DNA from: Escherichia coli
Lineage (GTDB): Bacteria > Pseudomonadota > Gammaproteobacteria > Enterobacterales > Enterobacteriaceae
Strand: one strand, 5' to 3'
DNA length: 64,000 nt
Assembly: GCF_013122565.1 (NCBI RefSeq)
Contig: NZ_CP053258.1
Part shown: in pieces, positions 3,006-63,935 of the stretch
How the letters are laid out: every line of letters starts with the position of its first letter
Position numbering within the stretch: position 1 is the stretch's first letter
The notes under the pieces: generated by a model
What the model was told of the DNA's origin: nothing
Database searches by the model: none
The model's input: only the letters and a program-made list of their open reading frames with translations
Program-made: the position numbers and the translations under genes

Positions 3006-3061
3006 ATATGTGTTAATGAAACCTTCTTGACGCTGATTTTTTTTCAACCTAAAGTAAAGGA

Positions 3062-3210
3062 ACAAGGGTAAGGGAGGATTTCTCCCCCCTCTGATTGGCT
3101 GTTAATAAGCTGCGAAACTTACGAGTAACAACACAATCAGTATGATGACGAGCTTCATCATAACCCTTTCCTTATACAAGGCCCCTTCTTCGGGAGGGGC
3201 TTTCCCGTTT
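3062..3210 (+). ncRNA. sibE: Sib-type antisense sRNA (antitoxin of ibsE); ends approximate
   Basis: Promoter TTGACG (3027-3032), 17-bp spacer, TAAAGT (3050-3055); hairpin 3181-3200 plus T-tract; antisense to ibsE. Confidence 0.6.
3102..3161 (-). CDS. ibsE: Type I toxin Ibs family, 19-aa peptide MMKLVIILIVLLLVSFAAY
   Basis: Hand translation of the minus strand gives ATG ATG AAG CTC GTC ATC ATA CTG ATT GTG TTG TTA CTC GTA AGT TTC GCA GCT TAT TAA. Confidence 0.8.
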   Translation of the reverse strand: MMKLVIILIVLLLVSFAAY

Positions 3211-6635: not shown

Positions 6636-6644
6636 GAATCCGCT

Positions 6645-6795
6645 TATTCTCAGGGCGGGGCGAAATTCCCCACCGGCGGTAAATCAACTTGGTTGAAAGC
6701 CCGCGAGCGCTTTGAGTGCGAACTCAAAGGACAGCAGATCCGGTGTAATTCCGGGGCCGACGGTTAGAGTCCGGATGGGAGAGAGTAACGATTCT
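6645..6795 (+). promoter_or_regulatory. FMN riboswitch (RFN element) in the ribB leader; boundaries approximate
   Basis: Conserved RFN core: GGGCGGGGCGAAATTCCCCACCGGCGGTAAA...CCGGGGCCGACGGTTAGAGTCCGGATGGGAGAG upstream of ribB. Confidence 0.85.
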
Positions 6796-36386: not shown

Positions 36387-37799
36387 ATGTCACTCAGTCG
36401 GCGTCAGTTCATTCAGGCATCGGGGATTGCACTTTGTGCAGGCGCTGTTCCCCTGAAGGCCAGCGCAGCCGGGCAACAGCAACCGCTACCCGTTCCGCCG
36501 CTGCTTGAATCTCGCCGTGGGCAACCGCTGTTTATGACTGTACAACGCGCGCACTGGTCATTTACGCCAGGGACACGCGCGTCGGTCTGGGGAATCAATG
36601 GTCGTTACCTGGGGCCGACTATCCGCGTCTGGAAGGGCGACGATGTTAAGCTTATTTACAGCAACCGGCTGACAGAAAATGTCTCAATGACGGTGGCCGG
36701 GCTACAGGTACCTGGCCCGCTGATGGGCGGGCCGGCACGGATGATGTCGCCAAACGCTGACTGGGCACCCGTACTGCCTATTCGCCAGAACGCAGCTACT
36801 CTGTGGTATCACGCCAATACTCCCAACCGCACGGCTCAGCAGGTCTATAACGGCCTTGCCGGAATGTGGCTGGTGGAAGATGAAGTCAGCAAGTCGCTGC
36901 CTATCCCCAACCATTATGGTGTGGATGATTTTCCGGTCATTATCCAGGATAAACGGCTGGATAACTTTGGTACGCCAGAATACAACGAACCGGGAAGCGG
37001 CGGCTTTGTTGGTGATACACTACTGGTTAACGGTGTGCAAAGCCCGTACGTTGAAGTCTCGCGTGGCTGGGTGCGCTTGCGACTGCTGAACGCGTCGAAC
37101 TCTCGTCGCTATCAACTACAGATGAGCGATGGTCGCCCGTTACATGTGATTTCTGGCGATCAGGGATTCCTGCCTGCTCCTGTATCGGTGAAGCAACTTT
37201 CGCTGGCACCGGGCGAGCGCCGCGAGATTCTGGTGGATATGAGCAACGGTGATGAAGTGTCGATCACCTGTGGCGAAGCGGCGAGCATTGTTGATCGTAT
37301 TCGTGGCTTCTTTGAGCCATCCAGCATTCTGGTTTCTACCCTGGTGCTAACGCTGCGCCCAACCGGCCTTCTGCCGCTGGTCACAGACAGTCTTCCTATG
37401 CGCTTGCTGCCAACTGAAATCATGGCCGGTTCGCCGATTCGCAGTCGCGATATCAGTCTGGGTGATGACCCGGGTATTAATGGACAACTGTGGGACGTCA
37501 ACCGTATTGATGTCACCGCGCAGCAAGGAACGTGGGAACGCTGGACGGTACGCGCGGACGAGCCGCAAGCGTTCCATATTGAAGGTGTGATGTTCCAGAT
37601 CCGTAACGTGAATGGCGCGATGCCGTTCCCGGAAGACAGAGGCTGGAAAGATACCGTTTGGGTTGACGGACAAGTGGAGCTGCTTGTTTATTTCGGTCAG
37701 CCTTCCTGGGCGCACTTCCCGTTCTACTTCAACAGTCAGACGCTGGAAATGGCGGACCGTGGCTCGATAGGGCAACTGTTAGTCAATCCGGTACCGTAA
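36387..37799 (+). CDS. ftsP: Cell division protein FtsP (SufI), multicopper-oxidase fold, Tat-secreted
   Basis: 470-aa ORF; twin-arginine signal SRRQFIQASG. Confidence 0.9.
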   Translation: MSLSRRQFIQASGIALCAGAVPLKASAAGQQQPLPVPPLLESRRGQPLFMTVQRAHWSFTPGTRASVWGINGRYLGPTIRVWKGDDVKLIYSNRLTENVSMTVAGLQVPGPLMGGPARMMSPNADWAPVLPIRQNAATLWYHANTPNRTAQQVYNGLAGMWLVEDEVSKSLPIPNHYGVDDFPVIIQDKRLDNFGTPEYNEPGSGGFVGDTLLVNGVQSPYVEVSRGWVRLRLLNASNSRRYQLQMSDGRPLHVISGDQGFLPAPVSVKQLSLAPGERREILVDMSNGDEVSITCGEAASIVDRIRGFFEPSSILVSTLVLTLRPTGLLPLVTDSLPMRLLPTEIMAGSPIRSRDISLGDDPGINGQLWDVNRIDVTAQQGTWERWTVRADEPQAFHIEGVMFQIRNVNGAMPFPEDRGWKDTVWVDGQVELLVYFGQPSWAHFPFYFNSQTLEMADRGSIGQLLVNPVP

Positions 37800-37849
37800 T
37801 GGACCAATTCATCGCTCCACTGAGTGGTGGGGCGATACAAGGATGAAAC

Positions 37850-39274
37850 ATGGATGGCATGGGATGGATGATTATTTTGGTACTTCCCTTTCTTTGGATG
37901 GGGTATGGACTGGCGTTGTTAATCATAACGGGGTGCGCTTTTGAATCTAAGGGGATTCGTCGCGTTCTGCTATGGGGTGTTGCGCCTCAGTTTATTATTC
38001 TTTGTATTGCGACCTTATTGCTTTACTGGACTAACTCTCGGTTAATTTATGTTTTTGTCTTTTTTCAGCCAGTTTTATGTATCACCACGGCAATTTTTTT
38101 ATTTGCTGGTAAAAAAACACAATATTCCAGATTGCTGTTTACTCTGTCTCATGTGATTTTTCTCGCTGGCGTTTTATATCAGGGGCATAGGGAAAATCTG
38201 CAATACATAATTAATAACGACTGGAAGGAATATAAAATAACGCGTTTATTTGAGCAAGTGCAGGACAATGGGGCGCATGCGCTGAATAACGATGTAACTT
38301 GTTCAGAATTAATGCAACTACTCACACTGGCAGCGGAACGTAATGACGTCAAAGAAGAGACGTTACGTACTCTTATTGCAAAGAAAGTATCGCCATTTCT
38401 GACAATGTCAGATAACTGTACGGGTGAGAATTCAGTAGAGACTTATTCTGTATATACTACGCCTTTTATGGCAGCTATTCAAAATCATAATATACATTCT
38501 GTCCGTTTTTTTAGTCAATTGCTTATGGGAAACTCATCAAAAGCAAAAAATAATCGTGACATTGTGCGCCGGGCAAACCCATTGATCGAAGTGTATAAAT
38601 ATAGTCATGGTTCTAAAAAACAACGTAAGTCAGGGTTAGAAATAAGTAAGCAATTAATGGCCATTATGCCAGAGCTATTAACAGATGCCGTCTGGCGTGC
38701 CGTGCTCAATGTATATGATGCCGATGCAGCACGATGGTTCTGGCGTAAGCAACCACCAGAAAATCGGTTGTATCGCTTAAAGGCTATGGCATTAATACCA
38801 CAAACGGATGCGCTATTGGCGGAGATTCGACAAACTCCAGAGGTACTGAATATCTCGTCTGAGGGAGACCTGAATGAAGAGGAGTTTCTCCATTTCTTAA
38901 TTTATGGAGGAGATACCGCTGTAATACATGCACTGGTTGAAAAAGGAATAGTTAACTGGCAGCACCTTATGAACATTGAGGGGTTTGATAAGGACCCCTT
39001 AATTTGGGCTATTTCAAAACTGGGAGAAAATGACAATGACCGGGAGGTTTTGACATTAATTATTCATGATATTAATGCGCAAAATGCACTGCCGGAGGAT
39101 CGCATAGCCAAATATTTAACGCGGACGGGATCAATGGGCGAGATTTTTTTAAAGGCGGGCGTACATTGTGATAAGTTATATGCGGCAATTGAGTCCGACA
39201 AAAAGCGAAATAATGGTATGTATAGTCAAAACGCCAGGGAAGAAGTGGATCGAGTATGTACGCCCGCAAAATAG
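37850..39274 (+). CDS. Hypothetical membrane protein, paralog A: about four N-terminal transmembrane helices and a helical (possibly ankyrin-like) C-terminal domain
   Basis: 474-aa ORF with AGGA ribosome-binding site; AT-rich codon usage; clear paralogy to the next ORF; not part of the K-12 gene order I recall. Confidence 0.6.
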   Translation: MDGMGWMIILVLPFLWMGYGLALLIITGCAFESKGIRRVLLWGVAPQFIILCIATLLLYWTNSRLIYVFVFFQPVLCITTAIFLFAGKKTQYSRLLFTLSHVIFLAGVLYQGHRENLQYIINNDWKEYKITRLFEQVQDNGAHALNNDVTCSELMQLLTLAAERNDVKEETLRTLIAKKVSPFLTMSDNCTGENSVETYSVYTTPFMAAIQNHNIHSVRFFSQLLMGNSSKAKNNRDIVRRANPLIEVYKYSHGSKKQRKSGLEISKQLMAIMPELLTDAVWRAVLNVYDADAARWFWRKQPPENRLYRLKAMALIPQTDALLAEIRQTPEVLNISSEGDLNEEEFLHFLIYGGDTAVIHALVEKGIVNWQHLMNIEGFDKDPLIWAISKLGENDNDREVLTLIIHDINAQNALPEDRIAKYLTRTGSMGEIFLKAGVHCDKLYAAIESDKKRNNGMYSQNAREEVDRVCTPAK

Positions 39275-39319
39275 GTGCAGTTTGGGGCGGTTAAGGAATA
39301 AAAAATAAAGGACTAAGCC

Positions 39320-40729
39320 ATGCGTAATGATGAATTTTTTCACCATTTTACTTTGACACTGTTTATGTTGGGTGGCTATCTACTGACTCTGTTCATCGTT
39401 ATCGTCCTTTCCTTTTTTAGCCCATTATGCCGAAAAATGGTCTTCCATGGCGCATTGCCGCAATTGATGATGGCAATAACGGTGTCGCTCGGTTTATATT
39501 ATCTGGAACGATACTCTTTTGCGGTATGGGCCTTACTGGATTCTTTTTGGATATTATTCCCCTGCCTGTTATTGATCATAGTGATAAATAAATGGTTAAA
39601 GCGTTCCCTTGTATGGATGAGTGCTTGTCATATTATGTGCTTGCTGTTGTTACTCTGGCAGGTGCAGCCCACGTTATTTAAAATCAGCTTTTATCACCAA
39701 CAATTAAGTCACCTGGCTCAGGCAGAGCAGGAAAATTTCCGCACACTGGATGCGATTCACGATACGCAACGTCTGGAAGCGATGTTACTGGTAGCGTTGA
39801 AATCCCCGGAAAATCAAACCTCTGAAAATGCCTTTCGCTATCTGTCAGGGCGAATCTCACCATTTGCTATACCTTCCATTGGCGATGAACAGTATTCTAC
39901 CCGCACTTTTTTTACGATTGCGTTGGAACATTACAACGCCCGCGCCATCCGCGCGTTTAGCCGCTTTCTGCAAGGAAATTCCTCAAAAGCGCAGGAATAT
40001 CGTGCGATTGTTCATCAAAAAAATCCACTGCAGCAGATGTACCGGGGAATAAGTTTGCCAATTCGTTTTAGTGAAGAAGAGATCGCCCGTCACATTATTG
40101 CCGCTCGCGAGATAAGCCTCACCTTACTGCCCCTGATGCCAGAATTATTAAACGAAGAGGCGTATGCAAATGTCATTGATGCTTATGACAGCGCAACGCT
40201 GAAGGCTTTTTGGCAGTTCCAGCTGCCGCCTACGCCGGTTTTGCGCCTGGAAGCGATGTCGGTAATTCCCATGACAGCGGCACTGGTTCAACAGGTGAGA
40301 GAGTCACCAAAACGGCTTGAACTGGAAGATAAAAGTGGCAGGACAGTACTAACTTACATCGTGCGCTTTGGAAATATTGCCGCAGTACAGGCACTGATTG
40401 ACGCTAATCTGATCGACTGGCAACGGCTTCGCCAATCGACAGAAAGGTCAACACCATTATTACTGGCGACCTGGCGACAAAAATACGACGATGATCATGT
40501 AATCTTCCCATTGATTTTAAAGGACATGCTGGCAAAAAATGCGCCACCCTCAGCAGAGGAAATAATGAACTGCCTTAAGGATGGTATGACCGCAGATGAT
40601 TTTTTCTCTGCCGGAATGAGCAACACGCAATTCTGTTCTGCGATTGAACAAAGCCTCCAGGCGAAAACGTCAGTATTACCGGCGAATCGATTACGCCATC
40701 TGCAATCCTCGCTGTGTGCAAAGCTGTAA
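39320..40729 (+). CDS. Hypothetical membrane protein, paralog B, same architecture as paralog A
   Basis: 469-aa ORF; shared blocks with paralog A, e.g. FSRFLQGNSSKAQEYRAIV vs FFSQLLMGNSSKAKNNRDIV and RLEAMSVIPMTAAL vs RLKAMALIPQTDAL. Confidence 0.6.
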   Translation: MRNDEFFHHFTLTLFMLGGYLLTLFIVIVLSFFSPLCRKMVFHGALPQLMMAITVSLGLYYLERYSFAVWALLDSFWILFPCLLLIIVINKWLKRSLVWMSACHIMCLLLLLWQVQPTLFKISFYHQQLSHLAQAEQENFRTLDAIHDTQRLEAMLLVALKSPENQTSENAFRYLSGRISPFAIPSIGDEQYSTRTFFTIALEHYNARAIRAFSRFLQGNSSKAQEYRAIVHQKNPLQQMYRGISLPIRFSEEEIARHIIAAREISLTLLPLMPELLNEEAYANVIDAYDSATLKAFWQFQLPPTPVLRLEAMSVIPMTAALVQQVRESPKRLELEDKSGRTVLTYIVRFGNIAAVQALIDANLIDWQRLRQSTERSTPLLLATWRQKYDDDHVIFPLILKDMLAKNAPPSAEEIMNCLKDGMTADDFFSAGMSNTQFCSAIEQSLQAKTSVLPANRLRHLQSSLCAKL

Positions 40730-40844
40730 CCAACCGGAAGTTAAGTCATCCGCTGAAAACATCGCATTAACTTTTCGATTTCTCTTTCGTTCCGGCTTAT
40801 AATCCCCGGCCTTTGATTATTTTTTTATCATTTCTGGAAGCAAA

Positions 40845-43064
40845 ATGAGCTCTATCTCCCTGATCCAACCGGATCGCGACCTGTTCTCCTGGCCGCAGTA
40901 CTGGGCCGCCTGTTTTGGACCGGCACCGTTTTTGCCGATGTCTCGTGAAGAGATGGATCAACTTGGCTGGGATAGCTGCGACATCATTTTGGTTACTGGC
41001 GACGCGTATGTCGATCACCCAAGCTTCGGGATGGCGATTTGCGGTCGTATGCTGGAAGCGCAGGGCTTTCGCGTCGGGATCATCGCCCAGCCGGACTGGA
41101 GCAGCAAAGACGACTTTATGCGTCTGGGTAAACCGAATCTGTTTTTCGGCGTTACTGCTGGCAACATGGATTCGATGATCAACCGCTATACCGCCGATCG
41201 CCGTTTACGTCATGACGATGCCTACACGCCGGATAACGTCGCGGGTAAGCGACCGGATCGCGCCACACTGGTTTATACCCAGCGTTGTAAAGAGGCGTGG
41301 AAAGATGTGCCGGTGATCCTCGGCGGTATTGAGGCTAGTCTGCGCCGTACCGCGCATTATGATTACTGGTCCGATACCGTGCGCCGTTCCGTGCTGGTGG
41401 ATTCCAAAGCCGACATGCTGATGTTCGGTAACGGTGAGCGTCCGTTGGTGGAGGTGGCGCACCGTCTGGCGATGGGCGAGCCGATTAGTGAAATCCGCGA
41501 TGTGCGTAATACTGCGATTATCGTAAAAGAGGCGTTGCCAGGCTGGAGCGGTGTGGATTCCACCCGTCTCGATACCCCAGGGAAAATCGACCCGATCCCG
41601 CATCCGTATGGCGAAGATCTGCCGTGCGCGGATAACAAACCTGTTGCGCCGAAAAAGCAGGAAGCGAAAGCCGTAACCGTGCAGCCGCCGCGCCCGAAAC
41701 CGTGGGAAAAAACCTACGTATTGCTGCCTTCTTTCGAGAAAGTGAAGGGCGATAAAGTGCTGTACGCCCATGCTTCGCGCATTCTGCACCACGAAACCAA
41801 CCCTGGCTGCGCCCGCGCATTGATGCAAAAACACGGCGACCGCTATGTGTGGATCAACCCGCCTGCTATCCCGCTTTCTACCGAAGAGATGGACAGCGTT
41901 TTTGCGCTGCCGTACAAGCGCGTGCCGCATCCGGCCTATGGCAATGCCCGTATTCCGGCTTACGAAATGATCCGTTTCTCGGTCAACATTATGCGCGGCT
42001 GCTTTGGCGGCTGCTCTTTCTGTTCTATCACTGAGCACGAAGGGCGCATTATTCAGAGCCGTTCGGAAGATTCGATCATTAATGAGATTGAAGCGATCCG
42101 CGACACCGTTCCAGGTTTTACGGGCGTAATTTCCGATCTCGGTGGGCCAACTGCCAACATGTATATGTTGCGCTGCAAATCGCCACGCGCTGAGCAAACC
42201 TGCCGCCGTTTGTCCTGCGTTTACCCGGATATTTGTCCGCATATGGACACGAACCACGAACCAACGATCAACCTCTATCGCCGTGCGCGTGATCTGAAAG
42301 GCATTAAAAAGATCCTGATTGCCTCTGGTGTGCGTTATGACATCGCCGTAGAAGATCCGCGCTATATCAAAGAACTGGCGACCCATCACGTCGGCGGTTA
42401 TCTGAAGATTGCCCCGGAACATACCGAAGAAGGGCCGTTATCGAAGATGATGAAGCCGGGCATGGGCAGCTATGACCGCTTTAAAGAGCTGTTCGATACC
42501 TACTCGAAACAGGCAGGTAAAGAGCAGTATCTGATCCCCTATTTCATCTCCGCGCACCCGGGTACGCGTGATGAAGATATGGTGAATCTGGCGCTGTGGC
42601 TGAAAAAGCATCGTTTCCGTCTCGACCAGGTACAGAACTTCTACCCATCGCCGCTGGCTAACTCGACCACCATGTATTACACCGGGAAAAACCCGCTGGC
42701 GAAGATTGGTTATAAGAGTGAAGACGTCTTCGTACCGAAGGGCGACAAGCAGCGTCGTTTGCATAAAGCGTTGTTGCGTTACCACGATCCGGCAAACTGG
42801 CCGTTAATCCGCCAGGCGCTGGAAGCGATGGGCAAAAAGCATCTGATTGGCAGCCGTCGCGATTGCTTAGTGCCTGCGCCAACCATTGAAGAGATGCGTG
42901 AAGCTCGTCGCCAGAACCGCAATACCCGTCCGGCGTTGACGAAACATACGCCGATGGCGACCCAGCGTCAGACGCCTGCTACGGCAAAAAAAGCGTCGTC
43001 TACGCAATCTCGTCCGGTGAATGCTGGTGCGAAGAAACGCCCTAAAGCGGCGGTTGGACGTTAA
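40845..43064 (+). CDS. ygiQ: Radical-SAM protein YgiQ (UPF0313)
   Basis: 739-aa ORF; radical-SAM cysteine motif CFGGCSFC; Lys/Arg-rich C-terminal tail. Confidence 0.9.
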
Positions 43065-43134: not shown

Positions 43135-43491
43135 TTATATGCCGAAATGTATCATGTGTTTATTTTCTCTGATAGCTTTTTGTATTACTTCTGATAAAGA
43201 AAGAAGTAAAGGATCGTGCTGGAATTTTGTATCCGATACAACAATATGAAGAAACTGATTTAATGAATCTGGTGGGATAATGGTGACTCCGTAGCGAGCA
43301 AGCGCATAACCTGGACGATTTAAACTATGATAGAAGGTTTTTATTGTCTGAAGTTGTTCCCACCATTCATCAATATAAATGTCATCATCAATATAAACGC
43401 AATTATATTTTTCAGGTTCATAGTGACCATAATCTTTATCAGTATCAATTTCATCAATAATACCAAATTCGGTTTTAATCATAATGACCAT
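43135..43491 (-). CDS. Small acidic hypothetical protein (118 aa)
   Basis: ORF with AT-rich composition downstream of the yqhG-like paralog on the same strand; no family recognised. Confidence 0.4.
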   Translation of the reverse strand: MVIMIKTEFGIIDEIDTDKDYGHYEPEKYNCVYIDDDIYIDEWWEQLQTIKTFYHSLNRPGYALARYGVTIIPPDSLNQFLHIVVSDTKFQHDPLLLSLSEVIQKAIRENKHMIHFGI

Positions 43492-43673
43492 GCTTTTTAA
43501 TTGTTATGCAGAAAAATGCCAGGAAAATGATTTAAATTGAATTTTCTGGGGTGATTTGTAATCTTGCTTGTCATATAGATGAGCCATCCAACGAGGTTGT
43601 GCAACATTTAATGAGGGAGACTGGACCAGAACAAGGCTGGGGATTAATATAGAAATGATTAACAATAGTGGCT

Positions 43674-44597
43674 TCATTTTGTCGTTGTTTCCATATTATT
43701 TTTAGCAGATTCCGCCTGTAATTTTTTGATTTCTTGTTCTCTGTGGCGTGCAAACTCTTTACGGGTCGTGACGCGTTCATACAAAGTAATATCGGTAATC
43801 CCCCCACTCCGCATGCCCAAATGACCTCGTATATCCATATCAAATGTTCCAGCTATCCGGACATAATCGCCATTTAGCTGACGAGCACGAGTTAAGGTCA
43901 CGACTGGGTTTGGGAAATCAATATCCAACCACACGCTATCACTTTGAACAAAATTTTCCCAGGATTCTTTATTTAAATATAAGGCGTTGCCTTCAAACTC
44001 AATATTGCCGACACCTTCGACAACCACCTTTTGCAAATGGTATTTTTCTGGCTGCGCAAGTAGTGCCGTCATTGATATCGAATGAGAAAAATGATCGCTT
44101 GAGGGTTCATTAATTACAGCTCTGCGTTTCATTCGCGTATCTTCACGTATTTCTGCCCGTAGACTGTTAGGCATTTCATTACCATCATCGATGTCTTCTA
44201 TTAGCCAGCGATGATTATCATTTTCACGAACCAGCATCAGCCCCAGTAACCGGTGGACATTGGTGCGATTTTGTTTGATAACCAACTGCAACAGTACATG
44301 CGTTCGGCCGCCATTTAGGTGTGTGCTTTGGATTATTTCTGCAGAAACGAAAGTATCATCAACACAGCGACACAAAAGATTATTATTCAGCCAGGGTGTC
44401 ATTTTGCCAGGAGTAGCGCTCATATTACTTCGCAAATCGAGACTGAATTCATCGGTTATTGGTATATCGCCATTACTGGTCAATGGTTGGTACAAACGTT
44501 CTATCGCTTCATTAATCGATTCTTTGCACAACACGTTTCCGCTGAAGCCACAGAACAGCAGAATAAAAAAACAGGTGTGCCAGCGTCGCATAATCAT
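43674..44597 (-). CDS. Secreted YqhG-like (DUF3828-like) protein, second paralog
   Basis: 307-aa ORF with signal peptide; shares motifs with the dkgA-proximal yqhG ORF (NHRWLIEDI vs NGRWVIDDI). Confidence 0.6.
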   Translation of the reverse strand: MIMRRWHTCFFILLFCGFSGNVLCKESINEAIERLYQPLTSNGDIPITDEFSLDLRSNMSATPGKMTPWLNNNLLCRCVDDTFVSAEIIQSTHLNGGRTHVLLQLVIKQNRTNVHRLLGLMLVRENDNHRWLIEDIDDGNEMPNSLRAEIREDTRMKRRAVINEPSSDHFSHSISMTALLAQPEKYHLQKVVVEGVGNIEFEGNALYLNKESWENFVQSDSVWLDIDFPNPVVTLTRARQLNGDYVRIAGTFDMDIRGHLGMRSGGITDITLYERVTTRKEFARHREQEIKKLQAESAKNNMETTTK

Positions 44598-46932: not shown

Positions 46933-47036
46933 ACGTTCCTCCTTTATATGAACTCACCGGAGCAGGCTCCGGTGAGGTGTTGTGAACTTAAGTCTGGACG
47001 AAATGCCCGAAAACGAAAGTTTGAGGCGTAAAAAGC

Positions 47037-52743: not shown

Positions 52744-52962
52744 ATTGCCTGATGCGCTACGCTCATCAGGCCTACAAAATCTATTGCAACATGTTGAATC
52801 TTCGTGCGTTTGTAGGCCGGATAAGGCGTTCACGCCGCATCCGGCATTAGGGGCTCAATGCCTGATGCGCTACGCTCATCAGGCCTACAAAATCTATTGC
52901 AACATGTTGAATCTTCATGCGTTTGTAGGCGGATAAGGCGTTTTCGCCACATCAGGTAAGAG
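52744..52962. repeat. REP/BIME cluster: two tandem ~113-bp units, each with paired REP palindromes
   Basis: Repeated gcctgatgcgctacgctcatcaggcctaca and gtaggccggataaggcgtt...gccgcatccggca motifs. Confidence 0.85.
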
Positions 52963-63854: not shown

Positions 63855-63935
63855 GTAGGCCTGATAAGACGCGATAGCGTCGCATCAGGCATTGTGCTCG
63901 ATTGCCGGATGCGGCGTGAATGCCTTATCCGGCCT
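63855..63935. repeat. REP palindromic units downstream of hybG
   Basis: gtaggcctgataagacgcgatagcgtcgcatcaggc and gccggatgcggcgtgaatgccttatccggcc. Confidence 0.8.

Follow-up and report, generated by a model that had tools for sequence, protein, structure and literature searches.

The window analysed here is a stretch of 64,000 nucleotides (nt) from Escherichia coli (RefSeq assembly GCF_013122565.1, contig NZ_CP053258.1), and between the core genes ftsP, which ends at position 37799, and ygiQ, which starts at 40845, it carries two open reading frames (ORFs) on the same strand, here termed ORF1 and ORF2. An earlier sequence-only reading of this DNA had described them as a tandem pair of paralogous membrane proteins of 474 and 469 amino acids (aa), each with its own ribosome-binding site, and both the coordinates and the two AAGGA sites bear this out (table 1). 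No ORF of at least 80 aa overlaps either gene on the opposite strand. The two proteins are clear but diverged paralogs, as that reading held, with 26% identity across 460 aa (BLASTP, E 3e-45). The same reading had placed only a short intergenic region at this position of the K-12 map; in E. coli genomes without the segment, ftsP and ygiQ do indeed lie ~110 nt apart. It had also remarked on the AT-richness of the first gene. ORF1 has a GC content of 0.407 (0.379 at third codon positions, GC3) and ORF2, also AT-rich, has 0.457 (GC3 0.481); the values for ftsP are 0.565 (GC3 0.592) and those for ygiQ 0.551 (GC3 0.624).

A narrowly distributed, fast-evolving protein family

ORF1 and ORF2 belong to a previously undescribed family that is narrowly distributed and found only in the Enterobacteriaceae. 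When 1.84 billion cluster representatives were searched exhaustively with a family profile, 129 matched, and about 30 of these are family members or fragments; wherever these carry a name the host is one of the Enterobacteriaceae, namely Escherichia, Salmonella enterica (including subsp. salamae), Pseudocitrobacter, Atlantibacter hermannii, Enterobacter cancerogenus or Superficieibacter. The AlphaFold database (AFDB) adds members from E. albertii and Phytobacter as well as split copies in S. Typhi. The remaining profile matches are giant multi-repeat proteins that align only to profile positions ~326–364, and word-based searches retrieve only close relatives, in Escherichia and Superficieibacter. 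The NCBI Prokaryotic Genome Annotation Pipeline labels the family genes 'hypothetical', 'membrane protein' or 'ankyrin repeat domain-containing protein'. Pfam, NCBIfam, PADLOC and PHROGs contain no model for the family (in PADLOC, none at E values up to 1), and no paper on it was found under the RefSeq or UniProt accessions. The sequence-only reading had assigned the pair to no known family, and no characterised family is matched here either: Pfam gives only a borderline match to Ank_2, and matches to Wzy_C, FlaF, LRAT and 7TMR-DISM (E at least 0.0085, not common to the relatives) were rejected as noise. One 123-aa protein from a public assembly joins an ORF1-type N-terminus to an ORF2-type C-terminus, evidently through a large deletion between paralogs.

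Selection on the two genes was estimated as the pairwise ratio of non-synonymous to synonymous substitution (dN/dS, Nei–Gojobori method) against five orthologs, taken from E. coli LD91-1, E. whittamii, Escherichia sp. MOD1-EC7003, an E. albertii-like contig, and Salmonella salamae or Superficieibacter. The ratio is 0.21–0.25 for ORF1 and 0.18–0.31 for ORF2, compared with 0.00–0.06 for parC, plsC, ftsP and ygiQ in the same ortholog pairs, and it stays below 1 in every domain, which indicates constraint throughout. Because of these ratios, and because the proteins have ~30 clusters of relatives, ORF1 and ORF2 are not chance ORFs; nor does the possibility of pseudogenes, which the sequence-only reading had allowed for, fit two intact frames with such values. 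They are protein-coding genes under purifying selection that evolve about ten times faster than their neighbours, and between genera the family proteins retain 37–50% identity, against 90–93% for ftsP.

Synonymous divergence (dS) in the two genes does not track that of the flanking genes. In the comparison with E. whittamii it amounts to 0.18 and 0.28 in the two ORFs, below the flanks (0.35–0.56), while in the comparison with MOD1-EC7003 it reaches 0.74, far above them (0.15–0.22). Such a pattern fits allele exchange by recombination via the conserved flanks, or the presence of old alleles.

Architecture of the two proteins

Hydropathy and AlphaFold2 (AF2) models agree with the sequence-only reading in placing four transmembrane helices at the N-terminus, followed by a helical domain, here of ~350 aa. 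In the full-length model of ORF2, which has a predicted local distance difference test (pLDDT) score of 79.6, the N-terminal helices span residues 2–31, 35–61, 65–92 and 96–137, and the all-helical domain behind them is well predicted. Modelled alone with 28 relatives, this domain reaches a pLDDT of 91.3 and a predicted template modelling (pTM) score of 0.86, and folds into ~8–9 helix hairpins, in which stacked antiparallel helix pairs are joined by hairpin loops as in the ankyrin-repeat superfamily. The 33-residue repeat with a TPLH-like motif and a beta-hairpin is present in two of the ORF2 repeats, the others being degenerate; a beta bridge at residues 336/342 of the full-length model corresponds to residues 219/225 of the domain model. 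The evidence from sequence profiles is borderline, with Pfam Ank_2 matching ORF2 at E 0.0015 and 0.00098 (aa 329–387) and ORF1 at E 0.14, and with only one of the 28 relatives reaching E 0.001. The ankyrin domain of KANK2 is matched at E 0.0024, and the profile segment that attracts the giant proteins (positions 326–364) matches 4–30 repeats in each of many of them, one of which Pfam confirms as a canonical multi-Ank_2 protein. A Foldseek search of AFDB50 with the full-length model gave, beyond family members, only weak eukaryotic repeat proteins. The fold is ankyrin-like, and the degenerate ankyrin-type repeats claimed by the sequence-only reading are thus supported by the domain model, the KANK2 match and the two ORF2 repeats, the predicted structure showing a repeat architecture. 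Residues conserved in the domain are Pro, Leu, Ala, Asn, Phe and Trp, none of them of a catalytic type; for this reason the domain may be regarded, with somewhat better than even odds, as a scaffold that binds a protein rather than as an enzyme.

The orientation of the proteins in the membrane can be predicted from the distribution of charges and cysteines. In all 18 diverged relatives considered, loops 1–2 and 3–4 each carry 2–4 Lys/Arg and essentially no acidic residues, and the short N-terminal tail and loop 2–3 are neutral or acidic. The upstream member in Pseudocitrobacter, a protein of 587 aa (locus L006, 8001–9764), contains the module twice, giving eight helices with the loop-charge pattern and the parity unchanged. 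Every one of the 17 full-length members, which share only ~20% identity, retains two cysteines on its last two helices (C440/C470 in ORF1), the first following a conserved Ala-Gly and the second lying 23–35 residues further on, near the C-terminus; the domain has few others. A conserved cysteine pair like this is what is typically seen where an exported domain has a structural disulfide. Since the positive-inside rule (18/18) and the cysteine pair (17/17) point the same way, both termini are likely to face outwards and the ankyrin domain is likely to be periplasmic, with a C-terminal disulfide that probably staples it. This predicted placement adds to the sequence-only reading, whose suggestion of an envelope-associated system survives as a plausible envelope role.

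The opposite arrangement, in which the ankyrin domain would be cytoplasmic and the protein a membrane-tethered scaffold or regulator that holds a cytoplasmic partner at the inner membrane, is unlikely. It has in its favour that most bacterial ankyrin proteins, including YahD and ArpA of E. coli K-12, are cytoplasmic, and that AF2 gives no orientation; it would have to accommodate a positive-inside pattern without exception, a conserved cysteine pair in a cysteine-poor domain, and an eight-helix variant of the same parity, all of which favour the periplasmic placement.

Conservation is lowest in the membrane module, which nevertheless keeps a nearly invariant Arg38 and Pro47-Gln48 in helix 2 and a histidine in helix 4 (ORF2 numbering). 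In Superficieibacter, Pseudocitrobacter and E. albertii, separate transmembrane-only ORFs of 120–132 aa stand beside genes for full-length members (table 1); they retain the R..PQ and CH motifs and could be either remnants or free-standing proteins. Slightly less probable than a cytoplasmic domain is a reading in which the four-helix module is the working part, acting as an oligomeric channel- or transporter-like pore or as a binder of a lipid or undecaprenyl-linked substrate, with the ankyrin domain in a regulatory role as in TRP channels or plant ACD6-type proteins. The polar residues conserved within a variable module (Arg38, Pro47-Gln48 and His105), the persistence of the transmembrane-only ORFs and the member with a doubled module would all suit it, as would weak Foldseek matches to plant PGG/ACD6-like proteins (E 0.13–0.26, below significance). 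However, Pfam detects no transporter family and no PGG domain, the latter even at E up to 10; Wzy_C is matched weakly (E 0.0085) and in only 1 of 28 members; the order of domains in the plant proteins is reversed; and the module is the least conserved part of proteins whose transmembrane-only companions may be mere remnants.

History of the ftsP–ygiQ slot

The genes are rare in E. coli. A set of 5,426 complete genomes was examined, of which 5,425 match the flanks; 13 of the latter carry the segment, always on the chromosome and at 96.6–97.0% identity, and it is absent from 99.8%. Alignment to the empty site of strain EC0430 shows a 36-nt spacer where the window has 2,970 bp, and the other 5,412 genomes have this spacer in place of the segment. 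The spacer contains a GC-rich hairpin, ACTCGCCC-GAGGA-GGGCGAGT, unrelated to the hairpin of the ftsP–ORF1 spacer, and does not occur anywhere in the window. A recent insertion with target-site repeats was rejected, as no repeats flank the segment and its boundaries are those of a plain replacement; an origin from a plasmid or phage was likewise rejected, tblastn against plasmids and phages having found no copies.

Several carriers have damaged the pair. Four of the 13 share a 519-bp deletion (window 39307–39825) that takes out both the ribosome-binding site of ORF2 and its membrane module, and in strain EC2641 an IS1 element is inserted near the end of ORF1 (at about window position 39257) and ORF2 is frameshifted. 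ORF2 is thus broken in 5 of 13 carriers, and ORF1 is intact in every carrier examined. Given the deletion in four carriers and the IS1 insertion with frameshift in another, the genes are dispensable in E. coli.

Outside E. coli, the same slot between ftsP and ygiQ holds varying members of the family. E. whittamii has both genes intact; Escherichia sp. MOD1-EC7003 has the ORF2 type only, and E. albertii the ORF2 type along with an N-terminal remnant, 132 aa long, of a third type. Salmonella salamae (S. enterica subsp. salamae) has the ORF1 type only, Superficieibacter (S. electus) the ORF2 type and a transmembrane-only ORF, and Pseudocitrobacter (P. corydidari) a pair of 587 and 472 aa with a transmembrane-only ORF. 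Some family members stand elsewhere in the genome as single genes; a genome-wide scan of the slot recovered only three species representatives, owing to its strict search patterns. In the neighbour-joining tree of the family, ORF1 clusters with the gene of Salmonella salamae, and ORF2 with those of Superficieibacter and the downstream gene of Pseudocitrobacter. Because the tree pairs ORF1 and ORF2 with genes of different genera, the duplication is placed before the origin of these genera. The sequence-only reading had proposed horizontal acquisition followed by duplication, and this order of events is not supported: the slot is occupied in other genera, the duplication is older, and plasmids and phages yield no match. 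The slot has the look of a long-established seat of the family, marked by gene birth and death and repeated loss. The locus also illustrates clearly how an ancient, rapidly evolving gene array has been retained at one fixed slot of the core genome by certain lineages, and how nearly all E. coli have lost it cleanly.

Ten genomic contexts of the family contain no toxin gene and no neighbour that is conserved between them, and each gene therefore seems to act alone. Functional coupling to ftsP, suggested by adjacency, was rejected, since some relatives stand alone elsewhere and since in Pseudocitrobacter and Salmonella other genes or long stretches lie in between. In Enterobacter cancerogenus, a single family gene adjoins a gene for Barstar (RNase immunity) and two small ORFs (locus L014, 9425–9847).

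The losses raise the question of whether the genes are decaying relics that have no present function in E. coli and are heading for extinction there. This is improbable: the absence from nearly all complete genomes, the broken copies of ORF2 and the fragments in E. albertii, Salmonella Typhi and others would be expected of relics, but both ORFs are intact in the window and in E. whittamii, ORF1 has been spared in all carriers examined, and dN/dS is held at 0.18–0.31 in shallow and deep comparisons alike and in every domain.

Within the window, the spacer between ftsP and ORF1 is 50 nt long and contains a stable RNA hairpin that is not a canonical terminator because it lacks a U tract. No promoter or terminator consensus between ftsP and ORF1 rises above shuffled expectation. 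As the usual ftsP terminator hairpin is absent and no such consensus stands out, transcription of the pair by read-through from ftsP is plausible.

Two further sets of features lie elsewhere in the window. A second rare accessory segment occupies the gap between ygiQ and yqhH and is found in 128 of the 5,426 complete E. coli genomes; it encodes a 118-aa ORF with no family match and a 307-aa ORF with a signal-peptide-like start, which is a distant paralog of YqhG (DUF3828). Matches to Rfam comprise two Sib RNAs, an FMN riboswitch, ES173 and two copies of naRNA4, and are ordinary for this region of E. coli.

Table 1. Features of the accessory segment and of the rest of the window. Positions are those of the window, except for the transmembrane-only ORFs, which follow the numbering of their own loci.
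Feature	Position	Strand	Details
Accessory segment, 2,970 bp	37800–40769	+	ftsP stop codon to conserved ygiQ upstream region; from alignment to the empty site of strain EC0430
RNA hairpin in ftsP–ORF1 spacer	37811–37836	+	-19.2 kcal/mol; z -3.84 versus shuffles; no U tract
ORF1 ribosome-binding site, AAGGA	37839–37843	+	read directly from sequence; 6–7 nt before ATG
ORF1	37850–39274	+	474 aa; 'upstream'-type family member; intact; orthologs at 96%, 92% and 75% identity
ORF1 four-helix transmembrane module, aa 1–112	37850–38185	+	hydropathy, charge; conserved R37, P46-Q47
ORF1 helical ankyrin-like domain, aa 113–474	38186–39271	+	alignment to ORF2; weak Ank_2 match at aa 340–411
ORF2 ribosome-binding site, AAGGA	39308–39312	+	read directly from sequence; 6–7 nt before ATG
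ORF2	39320–40729	+	469 aa; 'downstream'-type family member; intact; orthologs at 50–96% identity
ORF2 four-helix transmembrane module, aa 1–118	39320–39673	+	R38 and P47-Q48 in helix 2; His105 in helix 4
ORF2 ankyrin-like alpha-solenoid, aa 119–469	39674–40726	+	~8–9 helix-hairpin units
ORF2 recognisable repeats	40325–40549	+	aa 336–368 (DKSGRTVLTYIVRFGNIAAVQALIDANLIDWQRL) and aa 372–410 (contains STPLLLA)
ORF2 cysteine pair C439/C466	40634–40717	+	putative disulfide; last two helices
Second accessory segment, ygiQ–yqhH gap	43135–44597	-	GC 0.33–0.43
Rfam matches	2651–2800, 3027–3176, 6642–6790, 46971–47034, 52815–52885, 63858–63934
Transmembrane-only ORFs in other genomes	L004 9433–9795; L006 11270–11641; L005 7444–7842		own locus numbering

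Proposed function and known ankyrin proteins

Taken as a whole, the data are best explained, with a probability that we put at roughly 0.4, by ORF1 and ORF2 being functional, anciently duplicated family members that act as membrane-tethered periplasmic ankyrin binders. The four-helix module would anchor each paralog in the inner membrane, and the ankyrin domain would be displayed in the periplasm, stapled by the disulfide at its C-terminus, where, at the surface of the membrane, each paralog would capture or sequester a protein of the periplasm or envelope. The two paralogs may have different targets or may form a heterodimer. In the leading specific version of this proposal, they would serve as immunity-like neutralisers of an incoming toxin that acts in the periplasm. 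Such an immunity-like role, taken on its own, is a doubtful guess; it is made because known periplasmic ankyrin proteins bind enzymes and because the family evolves fast, occurs patchily, is duplicated in tandem and has been lost more than once. Tandem paralogs, the fragments, fusions and transmembrane-only remnants at the slot and the recurrent losses make up a pattern like that of immunity genes. More doubtful again is the form in which the genes would constitute a stand-alone, membrane-tethered immunity or decoy array directed against periplasm-acting toxins of competitors, be they type VI secretion system (T6SS) effectors, those of contact-dependent inhibition (CDI) or colicins, or against phage envelope proteins, without a linked toxin.

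A number of observations weigh against this interpretation. The pLDDT of the membrane module is low (46–67), and the topology rests on sequence rules only. The invariant polar residues of the module suggest that it does more than anchor the protein. Domain-wise pairwise dN/dS reveals no hot region of localised positive selection, the contexts surveyed have neither a toxin gene nor a conserved gene beside the family, and PADLOC, NCBIfam and PHROGs offer no match. Finally, the known periplasmic ankyrin proteins Tli and Bd3460, discussed below, are small lipoproteins or Sec-exported secreted proteins, in contrast to the four-helix anchor found here.

A related idea is that each gene provides single-gene anti-phage defence or superinfection exclusion, with the periplasmic ankyrin domain trapping a phage injection or lysis protein. 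The sporadic occurrence, rapid evolution, AT-richness, stand-alone position and tandem paralogs of the genes, together with their predicted envelope location, would be in keeping with this, but it is as improbable as the relic explanation: the family has no match in PADLOC or PHROGs, is not carried on phages or plasmids, and lies in no recognisable defence island, the slot being set between core genes and the other contexts being housekeeping. A membrane-tethered periplasmic binder remains our preferred account. No evidence of a new mechanism was found, and the family is of a known kind, that of ankyrin-repeat binding proteins, with an unusual architecture. If the orientation proves true and a binding partner exists, this would be a new architecture for envelope biology, and might uncover a kind of immunity, in gut bacteria, that is independent of a toxin.

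Canonical ankyrin domains (the Pfam Ank clan, with IkBa, ankyrin-1 and designed proteins such as DARPins) differ from the domain described here, in which only 2–3 of the ~8–9 hairpins are recognisable from sequence, and which follows an N-terminal four-helix membrane module in the same polypeptide and closes with a conserved pair of cysteines. In bacteria, ankyrin repeats have mostly been studied in secreted effectors that act on eukaryotic hosts. To our knowledge, only a few periplasmic ankyrin proteins have been described, and these bind and neutralise, or support, specific enzymes. AnkB of Pseudomonas aeruginosa is linked with the catalase KatB. Encoded in the katB-ankB operon (PDB 9iq8), AnkB is a catalase-linked protein of ~180 aa with a single anchor, whereas ORF1 and ORF2 have 469–474 aa and four helices, and have ftsP and ygiQ as neighbours with no catalase nearby.

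Plant proteins of the PGG-domain (ACD6) type likewise combine ankyrin repeats and a compact multi-helix membrane module in one polypeptide. They are eukaryotic, however, and their PGG module is C-terminal to the repeats, whereas the module of the ORF1/ORF2 family is N-terminal.

Precedents for the proposed role are two periplasmic ankyrin proteins: Tli of Enterobacter cloacae (PDB 7ubz), which neutralises the T6SS lipase Tle, and Bd3460 of Bdellovibrio (PDB 5cea), which acts against Bdellovibrio endopeptidases (PMC4686830). ORF1 and ORF2 show no sequence relation to either at E up to 1, and their structural score against them is no better than against other ankyrin proteins. Tli and Bd3460 are encoded beside their own toxin or enzyme, whereas the ORF1/ORF2 family has no adjacent toxin in its 10 contexts. 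What the two share with ORF1 and ORF2, if the predicted topology is correct, is the periplasmic location of the ankyrin domain, which the present family would combine with a conserved four-helix membrane module of its own.

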